A model generated the notes under the pieces. It had not been told where the DNA came from. It did not search any database and worked only from the letters and a program-made list of their open reading frames with translations. Both the position numbers and the translations under genes were made by a program. DNA of 18,910 nucleotides from Gemmatimonadota bacterium (lineage in GTDB: Bacteria > Gemmatimonadota > Gemmatimonadetes > Longimicrobiales > RSA9): positions 1,740 through 20,649 of the forward strand of contig JBBDRO010000087.1 in the NCBI GenBank assembly GCA_040905425.1, given 5' to 3'. This document shows, piece by piece, positions 5,443 to 16,387 of this stretch. Positions within the stretch are counted from its first letter, which is position 1. The number at the start of each line of letters is the position of its first letter.

Positions 5443-6777
5443 TCATGCCGTCCACGCCTCGAGCAGCGCTTCCACCACGTCCAGGCCGGCGTCCAGCTGC
5501 GCCGCCGTGATCACGGCGGGCGGGGTGAGCGCCAGCACCTCGCCGCGCGGGCCCTCCGGCAGCACCAGCACGCCGCGGCGGAGCGCCTCACCCATGAGCC
5601 AGGCGGCCGGAGTGCGCTCACCGGGAGCGGGGTCCGCCAGGCGCACGCCGCCAAGCAGCCCGAGGCCCCGCGGCTCCAGCGCCACGTCCAGCCGCTCCAC
5701 CCAGGACGTCACACGCGCCCGCACGGTTTCACCCAGCGCGGCCGCGCGCGCTACCAGGCCGTCCCGCTCAATGAGGTCGAGCTGCGCCAGCGCCGCCGCG
5801 CACGCCACCGGATTGCCCAGGAACGTGCTGGTGTGGATGGCCTCCCCGCGCGAGGGGGGCCAGGCCGCCATGATCTCCGGCGTACCGATGGCCGCCGAGA
5901 GCGGCAGGCTGCCCGTGAGCGCCTTGCCCACCGTCATGATGTCCGGCACCACGTCCGTGTGCTGACATGCGAACCAGCGGCCGGTACGGCCGAAGCCGCT
6001 GTAGATCTCGTCGAAGATGAGCACCGTACGGCGCCCGTCGCAGAGCTCGCGCAGGCCCGCCAGGAAGCCCGGCCCCGGGACGCGCAGGCCACCCCGCCCG
6101 AGCACCGGTTCCACGATGAGCGCGCCCGCCTCCACCTCGTCGATGAGCCGGGCGGCGCAATCCAGCGCCGCCGCCACCTCGCGCGGCGCGCTGCCCGGGT
6201 AGGGCGCGAAGCGGACGCCCGCGTGCAGGGCCGCCTGGAAGGGCGCGCGGAACTCGGCCCGGTGCGTGACGGCCAGCGCCCCCATGGTGAGCCCGTGATA
6301 GCTTCCCTCGAAAGCGACGACGCCGGGACGCCCCGTGGCCAGCTGCGCCGTCTTCAGCGCCGCCTCCACCGCCTCCGCGCCGGCGCTGCCCAGGATGGAT
6401 ACGGACAGGCTGCCCGGCGCCAGCTCCGCCAGCCGCTCCAGCAGGCAGACCTTGGCCTCCGCGGGGTGGACGTCACCCAGCGCGTGTGGCAGGCGGGCGG
6501 CCTGTGCCGCGATGGCCGCGGCCACCTCCGGCGGCGCATGCCCGGCCGTGGCCACGCCGAAGCCGGCGGTGAGGTCCACGAAGTCATTGCCGTCCACGTC
6601 GCGCACGGCTGCGCCCCGCGCCTCTCCCCAGAAGATCGGCGGCTCGGGCGCCATGCAGGTGACGTTGGGGGACTCCACGGCCGCCAGCCGCGCCGCGAGG
6701 GCACGCGAGCGTGGACCCGGTACGGACGTACGGAGGCGCGGCAGCGCACCCGGCTCGAGGGGGGACGGCAGGCTCAG
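5443..6777 (-). CDS. Class III PLP-dependent aminotransferase (GabT/ArgD-like), start uncertain
   Basis: DVDGNDFVDLTAG, GAEAVEAALK, SYHG, FDEIYSGFGRTG, PDIMTVGKAL and HTSTFLGNP. The homologous-looking N-terminus extends to CTG 6777; the canonical alternatives are GTG 6678 and ATG 6654. Confidence 0.9.
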   Translation of the reverse strand: MSLPSPLEPGALPRLRTSVPGPRSRALAARLAAVESPNVTCMAPEPPIFWGEARGAAVRDVDGNDFVDLTAGFGVATAGHAPPEVAAAIAAQAARLPHALGDVHPAEAKVCLLERLAELAPGSLSVSILGSAGAEAVEAALKTAQLATGRPGVVAFEGSYHGLTMGALAVTHRAEFRAPFQAALHAGVRFAPYPGSAPREVAAALDCAARLIDEVEAGALIVEPVLGRGGLRVPGPGFLAGLRELCDGRRTVLIFDEIYSGFGRTGRWFACQHTDVVPDIMTVGKALTGSLPLSAAIGTPEIMAAWPPSRGEAIHTSTFLGNPVACAAALAQLDLIERDGLVARAAALGETVRARVTSWVERLDVALEPRGLGLLGGVRLADPAPGERTPAAWLMGEALRRGVLVLPEGPRGEVLALTPPAVITAAQLDAGLDVVEALLEAWTA

Positions 6778-7226
6778 CGCCGGCCCCCGAAAAGGAGGGC
6801 GCCGAGCGCACCGGCGGCAACGCCGGCCACCACGGCGGCCAGGATGCCGGCCGTACGCTCGTCCATGCTCCGCGCAGTGGGCCGCGCCCCGCCCGTGGTG
6901 CCTTGCCGATCCGCCGCCGGTCGGACTGCCGGGGGCCGCCGCGTCGACTCCGCCGCGCTGCCCTCCGTCTCCGGCGGCGCGGCCTGACCGGCTTCCACCT
7001 CGGCGCCGCAGGCGGCGCACACCGTCATGCCCCGGTCCCGGGCGGTCCGGTTGGCGTAGCCCAGGGATCCGCCGCACGCCGGGCAGGCACCGGGCGCCGG
7101 ACAGGGTGCAATGAACTCGTAAAGCGAGCGCCGGGAGATGTCCAGGCGCTCCGCGATGGCGGCCACCGGGAGTTCCGATTCCCAGTAGAGGCGGTTGGCT
7201 TCGGGCGCGCTGGCAGCGTCCGGCAT
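6774..7226 (-). CDS. Hypothetical protein: HTH-like N-terminus, CxxC..CxxC zinc ribbon, C-terminal TM helix
   Basis: 150 aa: LYWESELPVAAIAERLDISRRSLY, CPAC, CAAC, then GILAAVVAGVAAGALGALLF-GGRR. GGAG upstream of ATG 7226. Confidence 0.75.
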   Translation of the reverse strand: MPDAASAPEANRLYWESELPVAAIAERLDISRRSLYEFIAPCPAPGACPACGGSLGYANRTARDRGMTVCAACGAEVEAGQAAPPETEGSAAESTRRPPAVRPAADRQGTTGGARPTARSMDERTAGILAAVVAGVAAGALGALLFGGRR

Positions 7227-7276
7227 GCGCGGCTCCGTGCAGAGGGGAGAGTGTAGCGCGCAACATAGGGCGGCGC

Positions 7277-9749: not shown

Positions 9750-9793
9750 CTGAAGAAGGGGCGGAGCGCTCCGGCGCCCCGCCCCTCTTTCAG
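9750..9793 (-). terminator. Terminator hairpin ending the three-gene envelope operon
   Basis: 20-bp near-perfect inverted repeat, minus strand CTGAAAGAGGGGCGGGGCGC-CGGA-GCGCTCCGCCCCTTCTTCAG, overlapping the stop at 9790. Confidence 0.7.
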
Positions 9794-10929
9794 TTGGCTC
9801 CCCAGCGGAGGGTGAGCCCGAGCTCACCGCCCCAGAGACCGGGGCTATCCTCCCCGCCAGCGGCGTCCACCTTGCCGAGCAGCAGGCGCGCGGAGGGCAC
9901 CAGCTCGAAGCTGCCCACACGCTGCGGCACGTCCGCGCCACCGCCCACGAGCCAGCCACCACCGCCGGCGCCTTCGGTGCTCTGCACGCGCGCGTCCAGC
10001 GCCGGACGCACCGTGGTCGTACCCAGGCGCATGGACCCGGCCACGCCGGCCACCAGCAGGTTCTGGCTGCCGGTCTGCGAGACACTGTCGCGTACGAACG
10101 CACCCTGATCGTCCACCAGCGAGATGAAGATGTCCCCGCGCTCACGCCACACGTCCGTGAGGTAGGCGGTCCATACGGCCGTCCGCGAGGTGCGGAACGA
10201 GTACGTGAGGTCGCCTCTCCAGCGATTGCCCGCCTGGAAGAGATTGCGCCCGTCCAGTTGATCCTGGCTGAAATTCTGGAAGGTCACGCCCGCGGTCAGC
10301 TTGTTGGCGCCCAGATTCCGGTCCAGCGCCAGCCGAACCCGCACCTCGTCACCCGGGGCGTAGGTGGCGTCCAGGTCACTGCGCGGCTCGAACTCGTCCG
10401 CCATGCGATAGCTGCCGGCCAGCCCGACCCCCCACTGGCCGGCGCGGAACGCCGTGGCCAGGCCGGTGGTGGCGCCGAAGCCCAACCCCCAGGTGGCCTC
10501 GCGAAAGCCCAGCAGCTCGCTGGACAGCGTGGCGGCCACGGCCGCCTCCTCCGGCGAGTGCTCCGTGGCGCCGGTGGGCAGGTTCAGGCCCAGCGTGACC
10601 ACCGCCCAGGGCGTGGCCGTCCAGCTGGCCCGCACGCGTGTGTCCACCATGCCGCTCAGCTCGAACGTGGTGCTGTCCGTCTGCGCCGACCCCCGTGCAT
10701 ACGCGGTGTAGAGGTCCAGCGTCAGCCGACTGCCGACCGGCTGTTCGAAGGCCACCGGCACCATGAGCAGCGTGGCGTTCTCCAGGCCCAGGCCCTCACC
10801 GAAGGTGTAGCCCTGGAAGACCACGCCGCTGGCCGCCGAGGTACCCGTCTGGGCCGCCGCGGGCGCGGCTCCGCCCACCAACGTCAGCGCCAGTGCCAGC
10901 GCCAGGATGCCGCCGCCGAAGCGCCTCAC
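9790..10929 (-). CDS. Putative outer-membrane beta-barrel protein of unknown function
   Basis: Sec signal peptide ending AAA-Q. Many amphipathic strands with aromatic ends (LTLDLYTAY, VTLGLNLPTG, WGVGLAGSY, WRGDLTYSF, C-terminal GELGLTLRW). The GTG start overlaps the upstream TGA (GTGA). Confidence 0.75.
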   Translation of the reverse strand: MRRFGGGILALALALTLVGGAAPAAAQTGTSAASGVVFQGYTFGEGLGLENATLLMVPVAFEQPVGSRLTLDLYTAYARGSAQTDSTTFELSGMVDTRVRASWTATPWAVVTLGLNLPTGATEHSPEEAAVAATLSSELLGFREATWGLGFGATTGLATAFRAGQWGVGLAGSYRMADEFEPRSDLDATYAPGDEVRVRLALDRNLGANKLTAGVTFQNFSQDQLDGRNLFQAGNRWRGDLTYSFRTSRTAVWTAYLTDVWRERGDIFISLVDDQGAFVRDSVSQTGSQNLLVAGVAGSMRLGTTTVRPALDARVQSTEGAGGGGWLVGGGADVPQRVGSFELVPSARLLLGKVDAAGGEDSPGLWGGELGLTLRWGAN

Positions 10930-12320
10930 TGTCCACCTCCCGGACGGGGGATCACGATGGTGATGACGGTCACGGGCGGCGGCGGCGGGGCGGGCGGTAC
11001 CACCGCGCCGCTCTGCCCGGTGGACTCCGACTGCGGATTGCGCGCCTCCGCCTGCTGGGTGGCCGGCTGACTGCCGCCCCCGGTCTGACCCGTCTGCGCC
11101 GCCACCAGCGGCACCGCGCCGGAGGGATTCACGGCATTGGCGGCGTTGCGCGCCATGTCACCCGTGGTGCTCACGCCCCCGGCGGGCGGCGGCGCCAGCC
11201 CCGCGGCGGCCACGTCCGTGGCGGCGCCCGCCTGCGCGGCGGCCCCGATCTCCGCGGCCTCCGTCTGCTGCACCTGGGCGCGCGTGAAGCTGGGGTCGAG
11301 CTGCGTGGCCTCGCCGAAGGCGCTGCTGGCCGTAGCGTAGTCCCCGCGGTCCATGGCCTCCAGACCCCGTCCATAGGCCAGGAACGCCAGCAGGTTGCTG
11401 GCCCGGTTCTCGTTGATGGCCTCCGTCTCCGCGGCCGTCAGCTGCACGCCCAGCCGCTGCAGGATGGCAAAGACCACGGCCTTTTCCATCTCGAAGATGG
11501 CGTCCAGCGGGCGCTGATCAGAGACTTCGCCAAGCTGGTTGCCGCCGGCCGTGGCCAGCACCGCCGCGTCGAGCTGCACCTGTCCCTCCGTACCGCCGGA
11601 GAGCGTGCCCTGGACCACGTTCTCGGCCTTCAGCAGGCGCCCCGCACGCGCGCCGGTGGCCTCGTCGGCCAGACCCGCCTGCGTGAGCACCATCTCATCC
11701 AGCATGCTGCGTACGCGGACCCGCTCCACGGACGTGACGGCGTTGGAGAGCCCGAGGTCCGTGATGATCATGTCCGCCATGGCCGTCTGCAGCGGCGCGT
11801 ACTCCTCCGGCAGGCCGAGCAGCTGGAAGGGGAAGACGGCCACGCTGTTGGGCGTGGGCGGCTCCTGGGAGAGCTGCGCCTCGCGCGCCAACGCCGTGCG
11901 CGCCTCGGCCCGCATCTGCTGGCGGGTGACCAGCGCCAGGCGGCCGCGCACGTCATCCATGAGCGCGGCGTTCTCACCCATCTCCAGGTAACGCTCGTAG
12001 GCCGTGCGCGCCTCGGTCCAGGCCTCGAGCTCCTCCTGGGCCAGTCCCAGGTACAGAGGGGCGGACCCACTGGCGTCCGGCCGGGACGCGAGCGGATCCA
12101 GCACGCGTACGGCGTCCTGGTGACGCCCGGCCTGGTAGTACGCCATGCCCAGTTCCGTGGCGGCATCCACGTCCTCCGGCGCCGCGGCCACCCGGGCCTC
12201 GAGAACGGGGATGTCCTCCGGACGCGCCTCGAAGGTGGCGGCGGCGCAGGCCGCCAGCAGGCAGAGGCCCACGGCCGGCAGCATGGCCGTGAACCGACGG
12301 AGACAGCGTGGTAGAGCCAT
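10926..12320 (-). CDS. Lipoprotein with TPR repeats and a CsgG/HfaB (TolB-N/FlgO-like) domain
   Basis: Lipobox LAAC. TPRs at LGMAYYQAGR..DA and LYLGLAQEEL..W.EA..AY. CsgG-like core SVAVFPF..ADMIITDL..VERVRVRSMLDE..AGRLLKAENVVQGTL, then a further TPR and a low-complexity tail. ATG 12320 has a GGGAGA RBS; a coupled ATG at 12371 is the alternative start. Confidence 0.8.
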   Translation of the reverse strand: MALPRCLRRFTAMLPAVGLCLLAACAAATFEARPEDIPVLEARVAAAPEDVDAATELGMAYYQAGRHQDAVRVLDPLASRPDASGSAPLYLGLAQEELEAWTEARTAYERYLEMGENAALMDDVRGRLALVTRQQMRAEARTALAREAQLSQEPPTPNSVAVFPFQLLGLPEEYAPLQTAMADMIITDLGLSNAVTSVERVRVRSMLDEMVLTQAGLADEATGARAGRLLKAENVVQGTLSGGTEGQVQLDAAVLATAGGNQLGEVSDQRPLDAIFEMEKAVVFAILQRLGVQLTAAETEAINENRASNLLAFLAYGRGLEAMDRGDYATASSAFGEATQLDPSFTRAQVQQTEAAEIGAAAQAGAATDVAAAGLAPPPAGGVSTTGDMARNAANAVNPSGAVPLVAAQTGQTGGGSQPATQQAEARNPQSESTGQSGAVVPPAPPPPPVTVITIVIPRPGGGQ

Positions 12321-12367
12321 CGACTTCTCCCGGGAGAGACGGGAAGTAGGTGAGTGCATGATCGTCA

Positions 12368-14914
12368 TCATCGGCGGATGGGGAGTGTGGGACGCTGGAA
12401 ACCCGAGCCCGCGGGAAGTCCGTCCGCTCCGGCCTCCATGGGCCGCGCATCACGGACCGCCCTGAGCTGCTCCAGCGTGGGTCCGGCCGGCTGCGCCATC
12501 AGCAACGCCGCCTGGTTTTCCCGATAGATCCGTATGCCGCCGATCCACATGGCGTTGGACGGTGAGGGCACGTCCAGCGGCTCCAGGGAGAGATCCGGCT
12601 GCTGCAGGAAGCGCGAATAGAAATGTGGGCTCGGATCATCCCAGTTGCCGTAGACCAGCACCTGTTCGCACCCGGAGTCGCGATACGCCGCCGGCGGTGA
12701 ATTCTGGAAGCCCACGATGAAGCCGCCGCCCGGGAAGGCAAAGCTGGCTTCCGCGGTGTAGATCAATTCGTAATCCCCGATCACCGTATTGCCGTGCGGG
12801 TTCAGCGGCACCTGCGCGTCCGAGACTACCTGGTGCCAACTCTGCGCCGCGATACCCTGGCTGACCACGTTGCTGCCCGAACCCAACTGAGGTGGCCCCG
12901 GGTTCTTGTTGGCCACCGCGAAGAAGATGTTGCGGCGCGTCTCATCGAAGTTCAGCGCGCCCATGTCGAAGGCAATCTTGTCCCCCGGGCTGAGCGTGAA
13001 CGCGGGCACGTTGCGGTAGATGAAGCCCATGAAGGAGTAGTTGGTATTACCGCCGAAGGGGAAGCAGTTGCCCACTCCCTTCACGTCCAACGGCTCGATG
13101 GCCAGTGCAGGCGCCGCACCCACCGGCGCGTCCACCTTCACAGCCGCCGCACCCTCGATGCTGCCGAGCGTGGCGTCGATACGCGCCTCGCCGTTGCTCA
13201 CGGCCGTGCCGGTAGCGGTGTTGTCTCCGTGGTCGCTGACCGCCACCACGCCACCGTCACTCGTGGACCACGTCACGATCCGGCCCTGCACTTCGGTGCC
13301 GTTGCGGTCCACCGGGGTGGCGGTGAAGAGCTGCGTGGCGCCGAGCGCCTCGTAGAGGTGCTCGGCCGGGTCCACGACCACGTCCGTGACCACCTGCTCG
13401 ATCTGCACGAGCACGTCGCCGCGGGCGTTGCCGGGGGCCGTGACGAAGACGATGGCCTGCCCATTGGCCTGGGAGGTGACCAGGCCGCTCTGATCCACCG
13501 TGGCCACGGTGGGCAGGGCGCTCATCCAGGTGAGTTCCACGTCCATGGGGTTGCCGTTTCGGTCCCGCGCCGTGGCGGTGAGCTGCTCGTCCACGCCCAG
13601 GGCGTCGATTTCCAGCCGCGTGGTGGACATCTCCACGCTGACCACGTGCTGCGTCACGGTGAGACTGGCGCTGCCCGAGACGCCGTCGGCCGCGGCGCTC
13701 ACGCCGGTGGTACCCACGCCGTTGGCGGTGGCCTGGCCAGCGGCGTCGATGCTGGCCACGTCCCCGTTGTCGACGCTCCAGGTGAAGGTCGGATCACCCA
13801 CCGCATTGCCGTTGGCGTCCTGCGCCTCCGCGCTGAACTGCGCCGTGGAGCCGAGGCCGTCCACCGTGGTGGATCCGGGCGTCACCACCACCACAGCCAC
13901 CTGCTGCTCCACGGTCACCGTGGCGGTGGCCGCCACGTCCGCGGCGCCATCGAGCGCCACCCGCACGGTGGCCTGGCCGTTCTGCTCGGCCCGGAAGACG
14001 CCCGGGCCTTGCATGCTGACGGCGCTGCCCTCGACCACCGACCAGGTGAGCGCGGGATCGCCCGCCACGGGGTCACCGCGCGGGTCGAGCACCTGGGCGG
14101 AGAACGTGGCTTCGGCGCCGAGCGCGGCTAGCGTCTGGCTGCCGGGCGTGATGGCCACGGACGCGGCACGCTGCGTGACCTCGATCTCGTGGGTGTCCGT
14201 GCGCGTGCCGGCCAGTACGCCGAAGCGGGCCGTGCCGGGGCGGAGGGTTACCACGTGGCCATCCTGATCCACCGTGGCCGTCTCCGGCGTGAGCGCGCTC
14301 CAGACCACCGTGGGGTTGGCCGGGCCGCCCTGGACCGCGGCCGCCAGATCCAGCTCCGTGCCCTCCTCCACCGGGCCGGCGGGGCCGGTGATGCTGACCC
14401 CGGTGATGTTCAGGTTCTCGGGCGGTCCGGGAACCAGCTCCGGACTCTGCACCTGTTGCGGCTCACCCGGCTGCACACCCGTGAGCGTGATCTCACCACT
14501 CCACTGCGTGGTCTCCACCCCGTCCACCACGTTCACCAGTTCCACCAGCACCTCGAGCGTCGCGGCGCCGCCCGGGGGCAGCGTCACCTCGAAGGGCACG
14601 CTCCATTGGCTCTGATCCGGATCCACGTCCACCACCGCGGTACCCACCACACTGCCCCCGGGCATCAGGCGGGCGGTGATGCGCACACGGTTGATGGGCG
14701 CGCCGGTGTAGTTCGCGGCGGCCGCGTGGAAGCCGGGCGCCAGCGGGATCTGCACCGTGCCGCCCTCGTGCGGCGTGCCTAGCGGGCCGTCGGCATCGCC
14801 GCAGCCGGCCAGCGCGAGGGCGCCGAGCGCGCAGGCGCCCAGCAGGTGACGCGCGCGGACTGCCACGCTCACGCGAGAACGAGAAGCGGGTATCGTCGGC
14901 CTGTGTGCGTCCAC
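12368..14914 (-). CDS. Lipoprotein with five Ig-like (Big_2) repeats and an unknown C-terminal domain, adhesin-like
   Basis: GTG 14914 with AGGAG 5 nt upstream, and lipobox LAGC. Five roughly 85-aa repeats (V.V.P....LG...F.A...D..G.....TW.....VA.VD..G...A...G.A) at about 14407-13133, and a distinct aromatic-rich domain at about 13105-12520. Confidence 0.85.
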   Translation of the reverse strand: MDAHRPTIPASRSRVSVAVRARHLLGACALGALALAGCGDADGPLGTPHEGGTVQIPLAPGFHAAAANYTGAPINRVRITARLMPGGSVVGTAVVDVDPDQSQWSVPFEVTLPPGGAATLEVLVELVNVVDGVETTQWSGEITLTGVQPGEPQQVQSPELVPGPPENLNITGVSITGPAGPVEEGTELDLAAAVQGGPANPTVVWSALTPETATVDQDGHVVTLRPGTARFGVLAGTRTDTHEIEVTQRAASVAITPGSQTLAALGAEATFSAQVLDPRGDPVAGDPALTWSVVEGSAVSMQGPGVFRAEQNGQATVRVALDGAADVAATATVTVEQQVAVVVVTPGSTTVDGLGSTAQFSAEAQDANGNAVGDPTFTWSVDNGDVASIDAAGQATANGVGTTGVSAAADGVSGSASLTVTQHVVSVEMSTTRLEIDALGVDEQLTATARDRNGNPMDVELTWMSALPTVATVDQSGLVTSQANGQAIVFVTAPGNARGDVLVQIEQVVTDVVVDPAEHLYEALGATQLFTATPVDRNGTEVQGRIVTWSTSDGGVVAVSDHGDNTATGTAVSNGEARIDATLGSIEGAAAVKVDAPVGAAPALAIEPLDVKGVGNCFPFGGNTNYSFMGFIYRNVPAFTLSPGDKIAFDMGALNFDETRRNIFFAVANKNPGPPQLGSGSNVVSQGIAAQSWHQVVSDAQVPLNPHGNTVIGDYELIYTAEASFAFPGGGFIVGFQNSPPAAYRDSGCEQVLVYGNWDDPSPHFYSRFLQQPDLSLEPLDVPSPSNAMWIGGIRIYRENQAALLMAQPAGPTLEQLRAVRDARPMEAGADGLPAGSGFQRPTLPIRR

Positions 14915-15029
14915 AGGGGCTCCTGGGGTACATGGCGAACCGGCGACACGCCAATCCTGGCGACGTGCCACAATGGGGCGAACATCGGGGAGCGAGGCGT
15001 TCGTGCGTACGAGCGTCTCCGGGGAAACG

Positions 15030-15059
15030 AATGTAGGATCGCGCCCCCGTTGCGGTCAA
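15030..15059 (-). promoter_or_regulatory. Putative sigma70 promoter of the Ig/CsgG/barrel operon
   Basis: TTGACC (15059-15054) - 18 nt - TACATT (15035-15030). Confidence 0.65.
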
Positions 15060-15070
15060 CAATGATGTTC

Positions 15071-15754
15071 TCAGGGAGTCAACGCGGAGAGGGCAGCCCG
15101 GTCCGGGATCCGGTAGCGACCCCTACCGTCGGACTCGAGGTGACCACGCGCACGGAGGTCGGCGAGTACACGCACCACCACCTCGCGGGCCGAACCCACC
15201 TTCTCGGCAAGGTCCGCCTGCGTGCCGGCCAGCCGGAACCACGGGCCGGCGGCCGCGGCGCTCCGCTCGAGCAGCTCGCGGACCACGCGGCCGCGCACGT
15301 CGAGGCCGTGGCGCTCGTCGAGGCGCTCGACCAGGAAGGAGATGCGTTGCGAGAGGTGGCGGAGCAGGCGCCAGGCAAGCTCCGGGTGACCGGCCAGCGC
15401 CGCGCGGAATTCGCCGGCTTCGAGGACGAAGCAGCGCGTGGCGCGGGTGGCTACCGCCGTGGCGGGGTACCCGCCCCCCGCCAGGAGCGGCACCTCGCCG
15501 ATGGTGGCGCCGGGCCCGGCGGTATGCACCACGTGCTGGCGGCCCTGGCGGGCGCGGACGATGCGTACTTCACCGCTCAGTACAACGTAGAGGCCGTCCG
15601 GCTCCTGGCCTGTCAGCCAGAGCACGGCGTCAGCTGCATAGGTGCGACTTGTTCCCGCCGCGGCCAACAGCGCCAGGGCCTCCGGCTGTAGTTCCGCGAA
15701 GAGGGGTATCCGGGCGAGCTCATCCACCATGTTGTGTGACCTGGGTTCCAGCAT
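15071..15754 (-). CDS. Crp/Fnr family transcriptional regulator
   Basis: IPLFAEL, LYVVLSGEVRI, GEVPLL, YPATA and HTH TQADLAEKVGSAREVVVR. Start at ATG 15754 or ATG 15730. Confidence 0.92.
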   Translation of the reverse strand: MLEPRSHNMVDELARIPLFAELQPEALALLAAAGTSRTYAADAVLWLTGQEPDGLYVVLSGEVRIVRARQGRQHVVHTAGPGATIGEVPLLAGGGYPATAVATRATRCFVLEAGEFRAALAGHPELAWRLLRHLSQRISFLVERLDERHGLDVRGRVVRELLERSAAAAGPWFRLAGTQADLAEKVGSAREVVVRVLADLRARGHLESDGRGRYRIPDRAALSALTP

Positions 15755-15777
15755 GGTACCACCCCGGACGTCATAAT
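15735..15777 (+). promoter_or_regulatory. Putative Crp-type site with a class II promoter for the Spy/CpxP gene
   Basis: TGTGA-cctggg-TTCCA at 15735-15750 is centred at -41.5 relative to a -10 box CATAAT at 15772-15777. Confidence 0.45.
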
Positions 15778-15826: not shown

Positions 15827-16387
15827 ATGCGTGACCATTCCCTGGCGGCCCGCTTCGGCGCGGCCGCCTGTGCCCTGACGCTCGTCCAGGCGGCACCCAT
15901 CGCCGCCCAGCACGAGCATTCGCCGTACGCCGCGGGCCAGTCGAGCCAGGTGAAGTCCCTGACCCAGCAGCAGGTGGATGACCTGCTTGCGGGCGCCGGC
16001 ATGGGGTTGGCCCTGCCGGCCGAGTTGAACGGGCACCCGGGTCCGCGCCACGTGCTGGAACTGGCCGACTCGCTCGCGCTCACCAGCGCACAGCTGAGGC
16101 GGACGCAGGAGCTTATCGACGCCATGCAGGCAGAGGCCGTGGCGCTCGGGGCGCGCCTCCTCGAAGCGGAAGCGGAACTGAACGATCTCTTTGCCGCCGG
16201 GTCCGTGGAGGAGGGCCAGGTGGCGCCTGCCGTCATGCGGGCGGCTCGGCTGGAGGGGGAGCTGCGCACGGTTCATCTGCGGACGCACGTTGCCATGTAC
16301 GGCCTGCTCACCGAGCATCAGCGCCACACCTACGATCGGTTGCGCGGCTATGGTGCGGGCCACGGGCCGGTGTCAACCCCGTTTTAG
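15827..16387 (+). CDS. Periplasmic Spy/CpxP (LTXXQ) family protein
   Basis: Signal peptide ending IAA-Q, then HEH, SPYA, GMGLALPAELNGHPGPRHVLELA, LTSAQ and LTEHQ motifs. GGAGG RBS. Confidence 0.85.
   Translation: MRDHSLAARFGAAACALTLVQAAPIAAQHEHSPYAAGQSSQVKSLTQQQVDDLLAGAGMGLALPAELNGHPGPRHVLELADSLALTSAQLRRTQELIDAMQAEAVALGARLLEAEAELNDLFAAGSVEEGQVAPAVMRAARLEGELRTVHLRTHVAMYGLLTEHQRHTYDRLRGYGAGHGPVSTPF

Follow-up and report, generated by a model that had tools for sequence, protein, structure and literature searches.

In two-partner secretion, the barrel of the transporter FhaC is plugged at rest by helix H1, and in the Lpt machinery the lumen of the LptD barrel is occupied by the lipoprotein LptE. 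In CsgG, two membrane-spanning hairpins from each subunit build an oligomeric channel. How surface lipoproteins cross the outer membrane is an open question for most phyla. The few known cases are Slam, some type 2 and type 5 secretion cases, and an Lpt-linked route in Bacteroides (PMC13692018). Here we describe three adjacent genes, g1, g2 and g3, in a stretch of 18,910 nucleotides from a Gemmatimonadota bacterium (contig JBBDRO010000087.1 of assembly GCA_040905425.1, positions 1,740 to 20,649; this whole stretch is called the window below). They form a compact system of three genes from a phylum that is common in soil and little studied.

The genes encode a large lipoprotein with immunoglobulin-like (Ig) repeats (g1), a second lipoprotein with tetratricopeptide repeats (TPRs) (g2), and an outer-membrane beta-barrel (g3). 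The g2 and g3 genes are a conserved pair, which is genomically and phyletically tied to a family of g1-like lipoproteins with a common N-terminal domain (NTD), and the C-terminal tail of g2 is predicted to fill the lumen of g3 as a plug. We propose that g2 and g3 probably, though far from surely, make up a two-protein outer-membrane complex that serves the NTD lipoprotein family as a dedicated export or anchoring module.

The g2-g3 pair and its predicted complex

The three genes and the parts of g2 are placed as follows. An alternative start of g2 at 12320 gives a protein of 464 residues, and the g2 residue numbers follow that form.

12368..14971, minus strand: g1, Ig-repeat lipoprotein, open reading frame (ORF) of 867 residues with lipobox LAGC and Big_2 domains
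10926..12371, minus strand: g2, TPR and TolB-N-like lipoprotein of 481 residues with lipobox LAAC (ORF, Pfam, model)
11886..12221, minus strand: N-terminal TPR domain of g2, residues 34-145 (Pfam TPR; helices in the model; TPR structures at Z 11-14)
11454..11855, minus strand: TolB-N/LpoB-like alpha/beta domain of g2, residues 156-289, source of the weak CsgG match (fold comparison)
11232..11435, minus strand: second TPR-like helical module of g2, residues 296-363 (Pfam TPR_1/TPR_2 at residues 330-362)
10929..11195, minus strand: C-terminal tail of g2, residues 376-464, predicted to lie inside the g3 barrel (low confidence when modelled alone; conserved in alignment A2)
9790..10929, minus strand: g3, outer-membrane beta-barrel of 379 residues with a signal peptide ending AAAQ (ORF; confident model)

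Transcribed in the order g1, g2, g3, the genes have a coding-type G+C content at third codon positions (GC3) of 0.85-0.89 in each frame, in a window whose overall G+C is about 72%. The g1/g2 junction is an ATGA overlap at 12368-12371 and the g2/g3 junction a GTGA overlap at 10926-10929. A preliminary description of this DNA had recognized three exported proteins joined by such overlaps, and the coordinates, the two lipoboxes and the one ordinary signal peptide agree with it.

We surveyed 201 genomes of the phylum Gemmatimonadota and found g3 in 75 of them, a tally that counts the window's own genome and G157, which is unpublished. In all of the first 30 loci, the gene immediately upstream of g3, with the same orientation, is a g2 homologue, and a profile search gave the same arrangement in 75 of 75 loci from 72 other genomes. 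This set of loci leaves out G157 and also G044, where the match reaches the edge of a contig. In most loci g2 and g3 either abut or share 4 bp. Each protein has hundreds of homologues with 45-60% identity, and the named sources are Gemmatimonadota. One protein of 792 residues, P0312, was considered as a true g2-g3 fusion and rejected; its His/Arg-rich junction runs into a g3-type signal peptide and reads as a frameshift or gene-calling artefact.

The g3 sequence has no Pfam match at E<=1, no match in NCBIfam, and none by PDB sequence search. Its model, which like that of g2 was made from an alignment of 36 sequences, is an all-beta barrel with a mean predicted local distance difference test (pLDDT) score of 91.7 and 22 DSSP segments, corresponding to roughly 16-20 strands. 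The lack of a Pfam or NCBIfam family and the confident all-beta model uphold the earlier designation of g3 as an orphan barrel. The closest folds were those of PelB (9h80_M, Z 20.1, root-mean-square deviation (rmsd) 3.7 Å over 267 residues), CdiB (19.3) and BcsC (6tzk, 18.8), followed by OprB (18.3), CymA (18.2), PgaA (4y25, 18.0), FhaC (17.2), and TamA and BamA (about 15). Judged from the model, these scores are too close to single out one function and indicate the barrel class only. Neither Pfam nor the fold searches placed g3 in a named small-molecule channel family, in keeping with the preliminary description. No Slam structure appeared in the fold lists, an absence that by itself excludes nothing.

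A search of 1.84 billion cluster representatives gave 1645 relatives of g3 at E<=0.001, 1341 of them at E<=1e-10. An Atlas search gave a g3-like cluster (score 0.98) of 102 members dominated by Candidatus Zixiibacteriota, with PF13557 on 11% of them; the barrel family may reach beyond the Gemmatimonadota.

In the model of g2 (mean pLDDT 82.8), the alpha/beta domain between the two helical modules matches TolB in its N-terminal domain. Fold comparison aligned TolB (1c5k) over 132 residues with Z 12.1 and an rmsd of 2.4 Å, and Foldseek returned TolB at E 4.3e-5, aligning at about 3 Å. The lipoprotein GNA1162 (Foldseek E 7.7e-4), LpoB and FlgT are also in the fold lists, and when the helices after it are included, the alpha/beta domain is similar to CadC's periplasmic domain (Z 11.5, 202 residues). 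A PDB sequence search with g2 returned TPR proteins only.

The preliminary description regarded g2 as a protein of the CsgG/HfaB type. Database annotation points the same way, with many g2 homologues bearing a precomputed PF03783 and one source labelling its copy "CsgG/HfaB family protein". The window's g2 matches PF03783 with E 0.0029 and 17.4 bits, under the gathering cut-off of 20.8, over profile positions 39-98 of 210, and the CsgG pre-pore (4uv2) is 29th in the Foldseek list with E 2.2e-3 and an rmsd of 13.7 Å. The modelled domain has 135 residues with short strands and no long or transmembrane hairpins, so that g2 appears to have the core of the fold in common with CsgG and not a CsgG-type channel. 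With a sub-threshold Pfam match, a TolB-N-like fold, no transmembrane hairpins, and no Csg or Hfa partners in the window, we have not kept the channel label.

Stand-alone lipoproteins of about 250-270 residues that do exceed the Pfam cut-off for CsgG occur within about 3 kb of the pair, mainly in genera with a short g2 that lacks the N-terminal TPRs. Examples are L031:6181-6936 (-) with E 1.5e-19, which also has an LpoB match, and L050:12496-13317 (-) with E 4.6e-17. Secondary matches to the g2 profile were also seen in loci L102, L106, L108, L110, L114 and L116.

Modelled alone, the g2 tail (residues 376-464) is disordered and of low confidence. In alignment A2 it is conserved, with a helix, a VNPS motif, and a C-terminal strand of the pattern I-x-I-x-I-x-R-P. 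Structure prediction of g3 (residues 28-379) together with g2 (residues 26-464) gave interaction prediction scores from aligned errors (ipSAE) of 0.84, 0.85 and 0.81, compared with 0.00 for the best of three controls. Among solved complexes 116 of 157 attained this mark, and among mismatched pairs 2 of 215; as the alignments were our own, these counts apply here only roughly. At least 80% of the contacts are common to the runs, and the pLDDT of the partner is 81.

The predicted interface joins g2 residues 376-457 to alternating strand positions all round the g3 barrel and to a long loop of g3, residues 124-149. Contacts that alternate along the strands are lumen-facing, which places the g2 tail inside the lumen, where it is predicted to act as a plug. 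Conserved g3 positions are mildly enriched there, with 22 of the 41 lying in the interface, compared with 39% of all positions (p about 0.03). Sequence and fold searches found no similar complex among solved structures, which makes it unlikely that the prediction recalls a known one. The preliminary description had proposed that the barrel and the TPR lipoprotein form a complex, and the prediction (ipSAE 0.84 compared with 0.00 in the best control) supports this. The plugging of the barrel by the tail had not been foreseen there.

Linked lipoproteins and flanking sequences

The likelier start of g1 is a GTG codon at 14912-14914 with AGGAG 5 nt upstream, giving a protein of 848 residues. Its signal peptide ends in the lipobox, with the Cys codon at 14801-14803, and three parts follow:

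14429..14803, minus strand: NTD of g1, about 120-125 residues from the lipid-bearing Cys, beginning C-G-D-A-D with Asp at +3 and +5 (alignment A3)
13054..14302, minus strand: Ig-like (Big_2/Big_1) repeat array of g1, about residues 224-609 of the 867-residue ORF (Pfam)
12368..13120, minus strand: C-terminal domain of g1, about 250 residues, with no family by sequence

Pfam recognizes Big_2 in four stretches of g1 (E 7.6e-19) and also Big_1. The C-terminal domain has no Pfam match at E<=0.1 and no PDB sequence match at E<=1. In a protein collection, g1 and its near-identical relatives carry the precomputed matches PF26182.1 and PF26918.1, and these entries may already name the N- or C-terminal domain of g1; neither was present in the Pfam library used or in the literature searched.

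As a whole, g1 is not conserved beside the pair. At many loci the gene just after g3 encodes a large lipoprotein, and the first 200-250 residues are common to g1 and these downstream proteins. Alignment A3 gives their architecture as an NTD that starts at the lipid-bearing Cys, then a Y-V-G-P-G-A motif, and then an Ig domain. Big_1, Big_2 or Flg_new_2 was found at E<=1e-4 in 22 of the lipoproteins encoded after g3, and single ones carry a legume lectin, cohesin, RCC1 or PD40 domain. Such passenger domains are typical of surface proteins. The proteins that contain them reach more than 1700 residues. Two lipoproteins encoded after g3, L074:3820-4626 (-) with Big_2 and L088:3762-4994 (-) with Big_1 and a cupredoxin domain, have Ig domains without matching the NTD profile, which suggests that the association with Ig lipoproteins may extend beyond the NTD family.

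One set of genera has a second form of the N-terminal region, group B (alignment A4). When the A3 and A4 profiles were compared, only the Ig part aligned (probability 93.6), and the comparison did not show homology between the first domains of groups A and B.

Using both profiles, we found that 33 of the 75 loci have an NTD lipoprotein gene no more than 700 bp from the pair and in the same orientation, and that the fetched regions contain no NTD gene elsewhere. The linked gene is downstream of the pair in 32 of these 33 loci, where it often shares 4 or 13 bp with g3; in the remaining locus it is upstream. The window is a second upstream case, and its gene order is thus the exception. The earlier idea of a conserved pair with variable upstream cargo therefore holds for the pair, which is intact in 75 of 75 loci, but not for the cargo, which shares the NTD and is downstream in 32 of the 33 linked loci.

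The distribution of the genes over the 201 genomes gave a similar picture. The best E-values against A3 are bimodal, with Ig-only matches weaker than 1e-18 and full-length matches at 1e-28 or better, and we set the cut at 1e-25. On this basis 63 genomes have both g3 and a full NTD match, 12 have g3 only, 3 have the NTD only, and 123 have neither. At least nine of the 12 genomes with g3 only carry the group B form; this count excludes G098 and G157, and G153 has Ig-level matches only. The preliminary description had expected the genes of the module to occur together elsewhere, as they do, both as the pair at every one of the 75 loci and as the pair plus NTD in 63 of the 201 genomes.

Of the 4798 ORFs in the window's genome, just two matched an NTD profile made without the window's sequence: g1 (E 1.4e-5) and a paralogue on contig C12 (E 4.8e-8). 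Paralogues of g1 lie on contigs C12 and C96, and this genome has a single g2-g3 pair. Several other genomes also have multiple NTD copies, such as G090 with at least six full-length matches among those listed. The 20 Big_2 matches in this 4.1-Mb genome are confined to a small number of distinct ORFs, so chance adjacency of such a gene to the pair is unlikely. A word-based homologue search with the g1 NTD returned only g1 itself and two near-identical proteins, the method being too insensitive for this domain, and an Atlas search with the NTD was uninformative (best score 0.92, an unnamed cluster).

The lipoproteins linked to the pair differ from g2 in the residues that follow the lipid-bearing Cys. 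Asp or Glu is present at +2 or +3 in 29 of 29 cargo lipoproteins, mostly as C-x-D, and at +2 to +5 in none of 29 g2 lipoproteins. The background, 38 of 153 with Asp or Glu at +2 or +3, comes from a crude scan of putative lipoproteins in the window's genome. Surface lipoproteins of Bacteroidota have a negatively charged motif after the Cys as their export signal (PMC13692018). From sequence, the acidic motif is a candidate sorting signal.

A small protein of about 105-185 residues without a signal peptide is encoded after g3 in 26 of the 75 loci and is absent from the window; in 6 of its 26 loci its gene separates g3 from that of the large lipoprotein. The N-terminal half of the small protein is conserved and its tail is rich in Lys, with no Pfam match where scanned. 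Examples are L065:4357-4674 (-), L035:9778-10125 (+) and L092:7198-7713 (+).

The flanks of the three genes in the window contain the following:

15071..15760, minus strand: Crp/Fnr-family regulator directly 5' of g1, given as context only (cNMP_binding E 1e-19, HTH_Crp_2 E 2.5e-13)
15030..15059, minus strand: sigma-70-like promoter candidate 5' of g1, TTGACC-18 nt-TACATT, matching 9 of 12 positions, a consensus match only
9750..9793, minus strand: GC-rich hairpin spanning the g3 stop codon, -42 kcal/mol (z -4.8), a probable terminator without a clear T-run

The preliminary description, which also listed one promoter and one terminator, is confirmed as an observation. The candidate promoter at 15059-15030 is a consensus match and one of 2 sites in the region, where shuffled sequences gave 0.2 expected. 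The hairpin is strong, although the terminator scan gave 0 sites for want of a T-run after it.

The remaining neighbours in the window are housekeeping enzymes by Pfam. A Pfam scan of g1-g3 and 16 neighbouring ORFs found no curlin, CsgE/F, Hfa, TonB-plug or POTRA family, in agreement with the preliminary description, which had reported no curlin, CsgE/F, holdfast, TonB-plug or POTRA sequence. In one distant genome the last 4 bp of g3 are shared with a Crp-family gene (L106:6979-7680 (+)), and the presence of Crp/Fnr genes beside the module both there and in the window could reflect recurrent regulation by a sensor of the cyclic-nucleotide type. Divergent from the Crp gene in the window is an ORF at 15827-16387 (+) with LTXXQ and Metal_resist matches (a Spy/CpxP-like periplasmic family), which are below or near their cut-offs; a link to envelope stress is possible. 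In the class-III aminotransferase ORF at 5443-7266 (-), about 200 residues precede the Pfam domain, which covers residues 210-600 of 607, indicating either a mis-set start or an N-terminal extension.

Possible functions of the module

Our proposal starts from computed results, namely the conserved pair, the tail-in-barrel interface, the common NTD, and the linkage and co-occurrence. In the arrangement that we envisage, g3 would be the barrel, the TPR and TolB-N-like domains of g2 would hang below it on the periplasmic side, and the g2 tail of about 85 residues would plug the lumen in trans. The cargo would consist of an acidic C-x-D/E start, the NTD, a variable Ig stalk, and then a lectin-like, cohesin-like, propeller or unknown head. 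A cargo lipoprotein would arrive at the outer membrane by way of Sec and Lol. We infer that its NTD would then be recognized by the periplasmic domains of g2, acting as a receptor, that the plug would give way, and that the lipoprotein would pass through or alongside the barrel and stay anchored at the cell surface with its Ig stalk displayed.

A bolder version, possible in our view but rather doubtful, is that this is a new outer-membrane export system in which a tail-gated barrel sends giant Ig-repeat lipoproteins to the surface by means of an N-terminal signal. With the same reservation, such a system might be widespread in one class of the Gemmatimonadota, with several cargos per genome of up to thousands of residues, and it might be unrelated by homology to the Lpt route, Slam or two-partner secretion. 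We regard the module as probably one for the dedicated outer-membrane handling of surface lipoproteins, with a real possibility that it represents a new type of export system. No description of such a system was found in a limited literature search, which covered the best 12 of 251 papers listed on outer-membrane Ig-like lipoproteins of Gemmatimonadetes.

Several points weigh against the proposal of a complex serving the NTD lipoproteins. The folds closest to g3 belong to exporters of polysaccharides and to TpsB barrels, whose scores differ by no more than about 2 Z units, and the outer loops are very short in the g3 model. There is no adjacent NTD lipoprotein in 42 of the 75 loci. Of the 33 adjacent proteins, 29 had gone into the NTD profiles, and only 5 of the matches were new; against the profile made without it, the window's own g1 reached only the E of 1.4e-5 given above. 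The three genomes with the NTD only, which are 95-99% complete, stay negative for g3 by profile search. The co-occurrence counts overstate independence, as the genomes belong to one phylum and are related, and the gene calls in the other genomes come from a simple ORF and GC3 script. Contact of the NTD with g2 or g3 is conjectural. Finally, the acidic motif could mean that these lipoproteins follow a general export pathway, as in Bacteroidota, and that g2-g3 is not their translocon.

The last point leads to the principal alternative, which we consider unlikely but worth serious attention: that g2-g3 is a gated, plugged channel and that the Ig lipoproteins, exported generally, dock onto it through the NTD and capture substrates or particles. 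The acidic motif in 29 of 29 cargos fits such a general signal as it is described for Bacteroidota (PMC13692018). The lectin, cohesin and propeller heads would suit ligand capture, translational coupling of the lipoprotein gene to g3 is consistent with a stable complex of fixed stoichiometry, and a plugged barrel resembles a gated transporter. The arrangement would be analogous to that of the surface lipoproteins on SusC-type barrels in Bacteroidota. However, Pfam and NCBIfam searches found no TonB-box, plug domain or SusC/SusD family, the very short outer loops of g3 would make a poor docking surface, and neighbour scans showed no hydrolase or inner-membrane transporter consistently nearby. 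Docking also leaves the periplasmic TPR and TolB-N-like domains of g2 without a clear role.

It is improbable, in our estimate, that g2-g3 is a general envelope module, either a structural or tethering complex or a plugged porin, with the Ig lipoproteins as co-expressed neighbours in the periplasm. TolB and LpoB act in envelope maintenance, and the fold matches of g2 are to domains of this kind. The 42 loci without an NTD lipoprotein, in which the pair stands amid housekeeping genes (YebC, a DnaB_C-like ATPase, signal peptidase), would also be expected under this explanation. Against it are the co-occurrence pattern (63 genomes with both, 12 with g3 only, 3 with the NTD only, 123 with neither), the same-strand, adjoining position of all 33 NTD genes in the fetched regions, and the 4- or 13-bp overlap of g3 with the lipoprotein gene at many loci. 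The presence of the pair in only 75 of 201 genomes indicates that it is not a core part of the envelope.

A rearranged polysaccharide exporter of the PelB/PelC, BcsC or PgaA kind, in which a TPR scaffold and a lipoprotein domain would sit beneath a barrel that releases an exopolysaccharide and the Ig and lectin lipoproteins would bind this polymer, is a distinctly improbable explanation. All three TPR-linked exporters are among the best folds for g3 (PelB 20.1, BcsC 18.8, PgaA 18.0), but with CdiB, OprB and CymA within 2 Z units the match indicates only the barrel class. PelB operates with TPRs and a ring of a small lipoprotein (PMC12141448), and g2 has its Foldseek match to GNA1162 (E 7.7e-4). 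No glycosyltransferase, synthase or polymer-modifying gene was found in the window or among the 39 + 36 neighbours scanned elsewhere, however, and the lumen is predicted to hold a protein tail.

That g2 is a true CsgG/HfaB channel, an oligomeric pore for amyloid secretion or holdfast anchoring, has hardly any probability left: the precomputed PF03783 matches, the one "CsgG/HfaB family protein" name and the E 0.0029 match of the window's g2 are outweighed by the position of that match below the cut-off and over positions 39-98 of 210 only, by a 135-residue domain without long hairpins for which 4uv2 is 29th at 13.7 Å compared with about 3 Å for TolB, and by the lack of a curlin, CsgE/F or Hfa partner in the window scans, so that the g2 model largely refutes this reading.

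If the export proposal is true, the module would be a new solution to surface display, would explain how giant Ig-type adhesins come to stand on the surface of Gemmatimonadota, and could act as a display scaffold. The locus offers a candidate sorting signal, a predicted plug-in-barrel gate, and natural cargos of very different sizes. Even if the pair does no more than anchor its lipoproteins, its architecture would be unusual, with the tail of one protein plugging the barrel of another.

Comparison with known systems

With the CsgG/HfaB and TolB-N/LpoB groups, g2 has in common that it is a lipoprotein with the same small alpha/beta core. It differs from CsgG and HfaB in the predicted absence of transmembrane hairpins and of a channel, and in its sub-threshold Pfam match.

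The polysaccharide exporters PelB-PelC, BcsC and PgaA combine TPRs with a barrel, and they are among the best folds for g3. Their TPRs are fused to the barrel, whereas here they are encoded by a separate gene, polysaccharide synthesis genes are not found nearby, and the lumen is predicted to contain a protein tail. PelB adds a ring of the small lipoprotein PelC (PMC12141448). We do not claim that PelC shares the fold of g2, and we found no literature that joins PelC with TolB or GNA1162.

In LptD-LptE, as predicted here, a lipoprotein is inside the barrel of its partner. LptD is much larger and has a jellyroll domain, and LptE is a folded plug, whereas the plug predicted for g3 is a tail of about 85 residues in extended form. 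Pfam, NCBIfam and PDB searches showed no sequence similarity between the two systems. In Bacteroides, the export of lipoproteins to the surface has been connected with the Lpt machinery (PMC13692018). The surface lipoproteins of Bacteroidota with a lipoprotein export signal (LES) resemble the cargos here in the negative charge after the Cys, which is present in 29 of 29.

Two-partner secretion (FhaC or CdiB with TpsA) is similar in having a conserved N-terminal cargo domain, about 120-250 residues long, and a transporter gene that adjoins a very large, repeat-rich cargo gene. A plugged barrel is a further likeness, and the g3 model matches CdiB with Z 19.3 and FhaC with Z 17.2. In contrast to those transporters, g2 and g3 have no POTRA or TPS-domain family by Pfam, the g3 model consists of the barrel only, and both the putative plug and the putative periplasmic receptor are on a separate lipoprotein. 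A further difference is that the cargo here is lipidated.

The closest parallel in design is Slam, which likewise brings together periplasmic TPRs, an outer-membrane barrel, and an adjacent gene for a lipoprotein cargo. About half of Slam genes, 185 of 353, have a lipobox gene as neighbour (PMC5449769), compared with 33 of 75 loci and the window here. In both systems the cargo family has one conserved domain and otherwise variable parts. Slam is a single chain in which the TPRs are fused to a 14-strand DUF560 barrel, whereas here they are on the separate lipoprotein g2 in 75 of 75 loci, together with a TolB-N-like domain and the predicted plug tail, and g3 has no DUF560 match, nor any other Pfam family at E<=1. 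The conserved cargo domain of Slam is a C-terminal 8-strand barrel, whereas the one here is N-terminal. Slam proteins (Slam1 and Slam2 of Neisseria, with cargos TbpB, LbpB, fHbp and HpuA) are reported from Proteobacteria, and the present module is from Gemmatimonadota. The preliminary description had likened the locus to Slam in logic, built from different parts, and the comparison bears this out: a TPR protein, a barrel and a lipoprotein neighbour recur, but with a barrel that has no DUF560 match, the TPRs on a lipoprotein of their own, and the conserved domain at the N-terminal end of the cargo.

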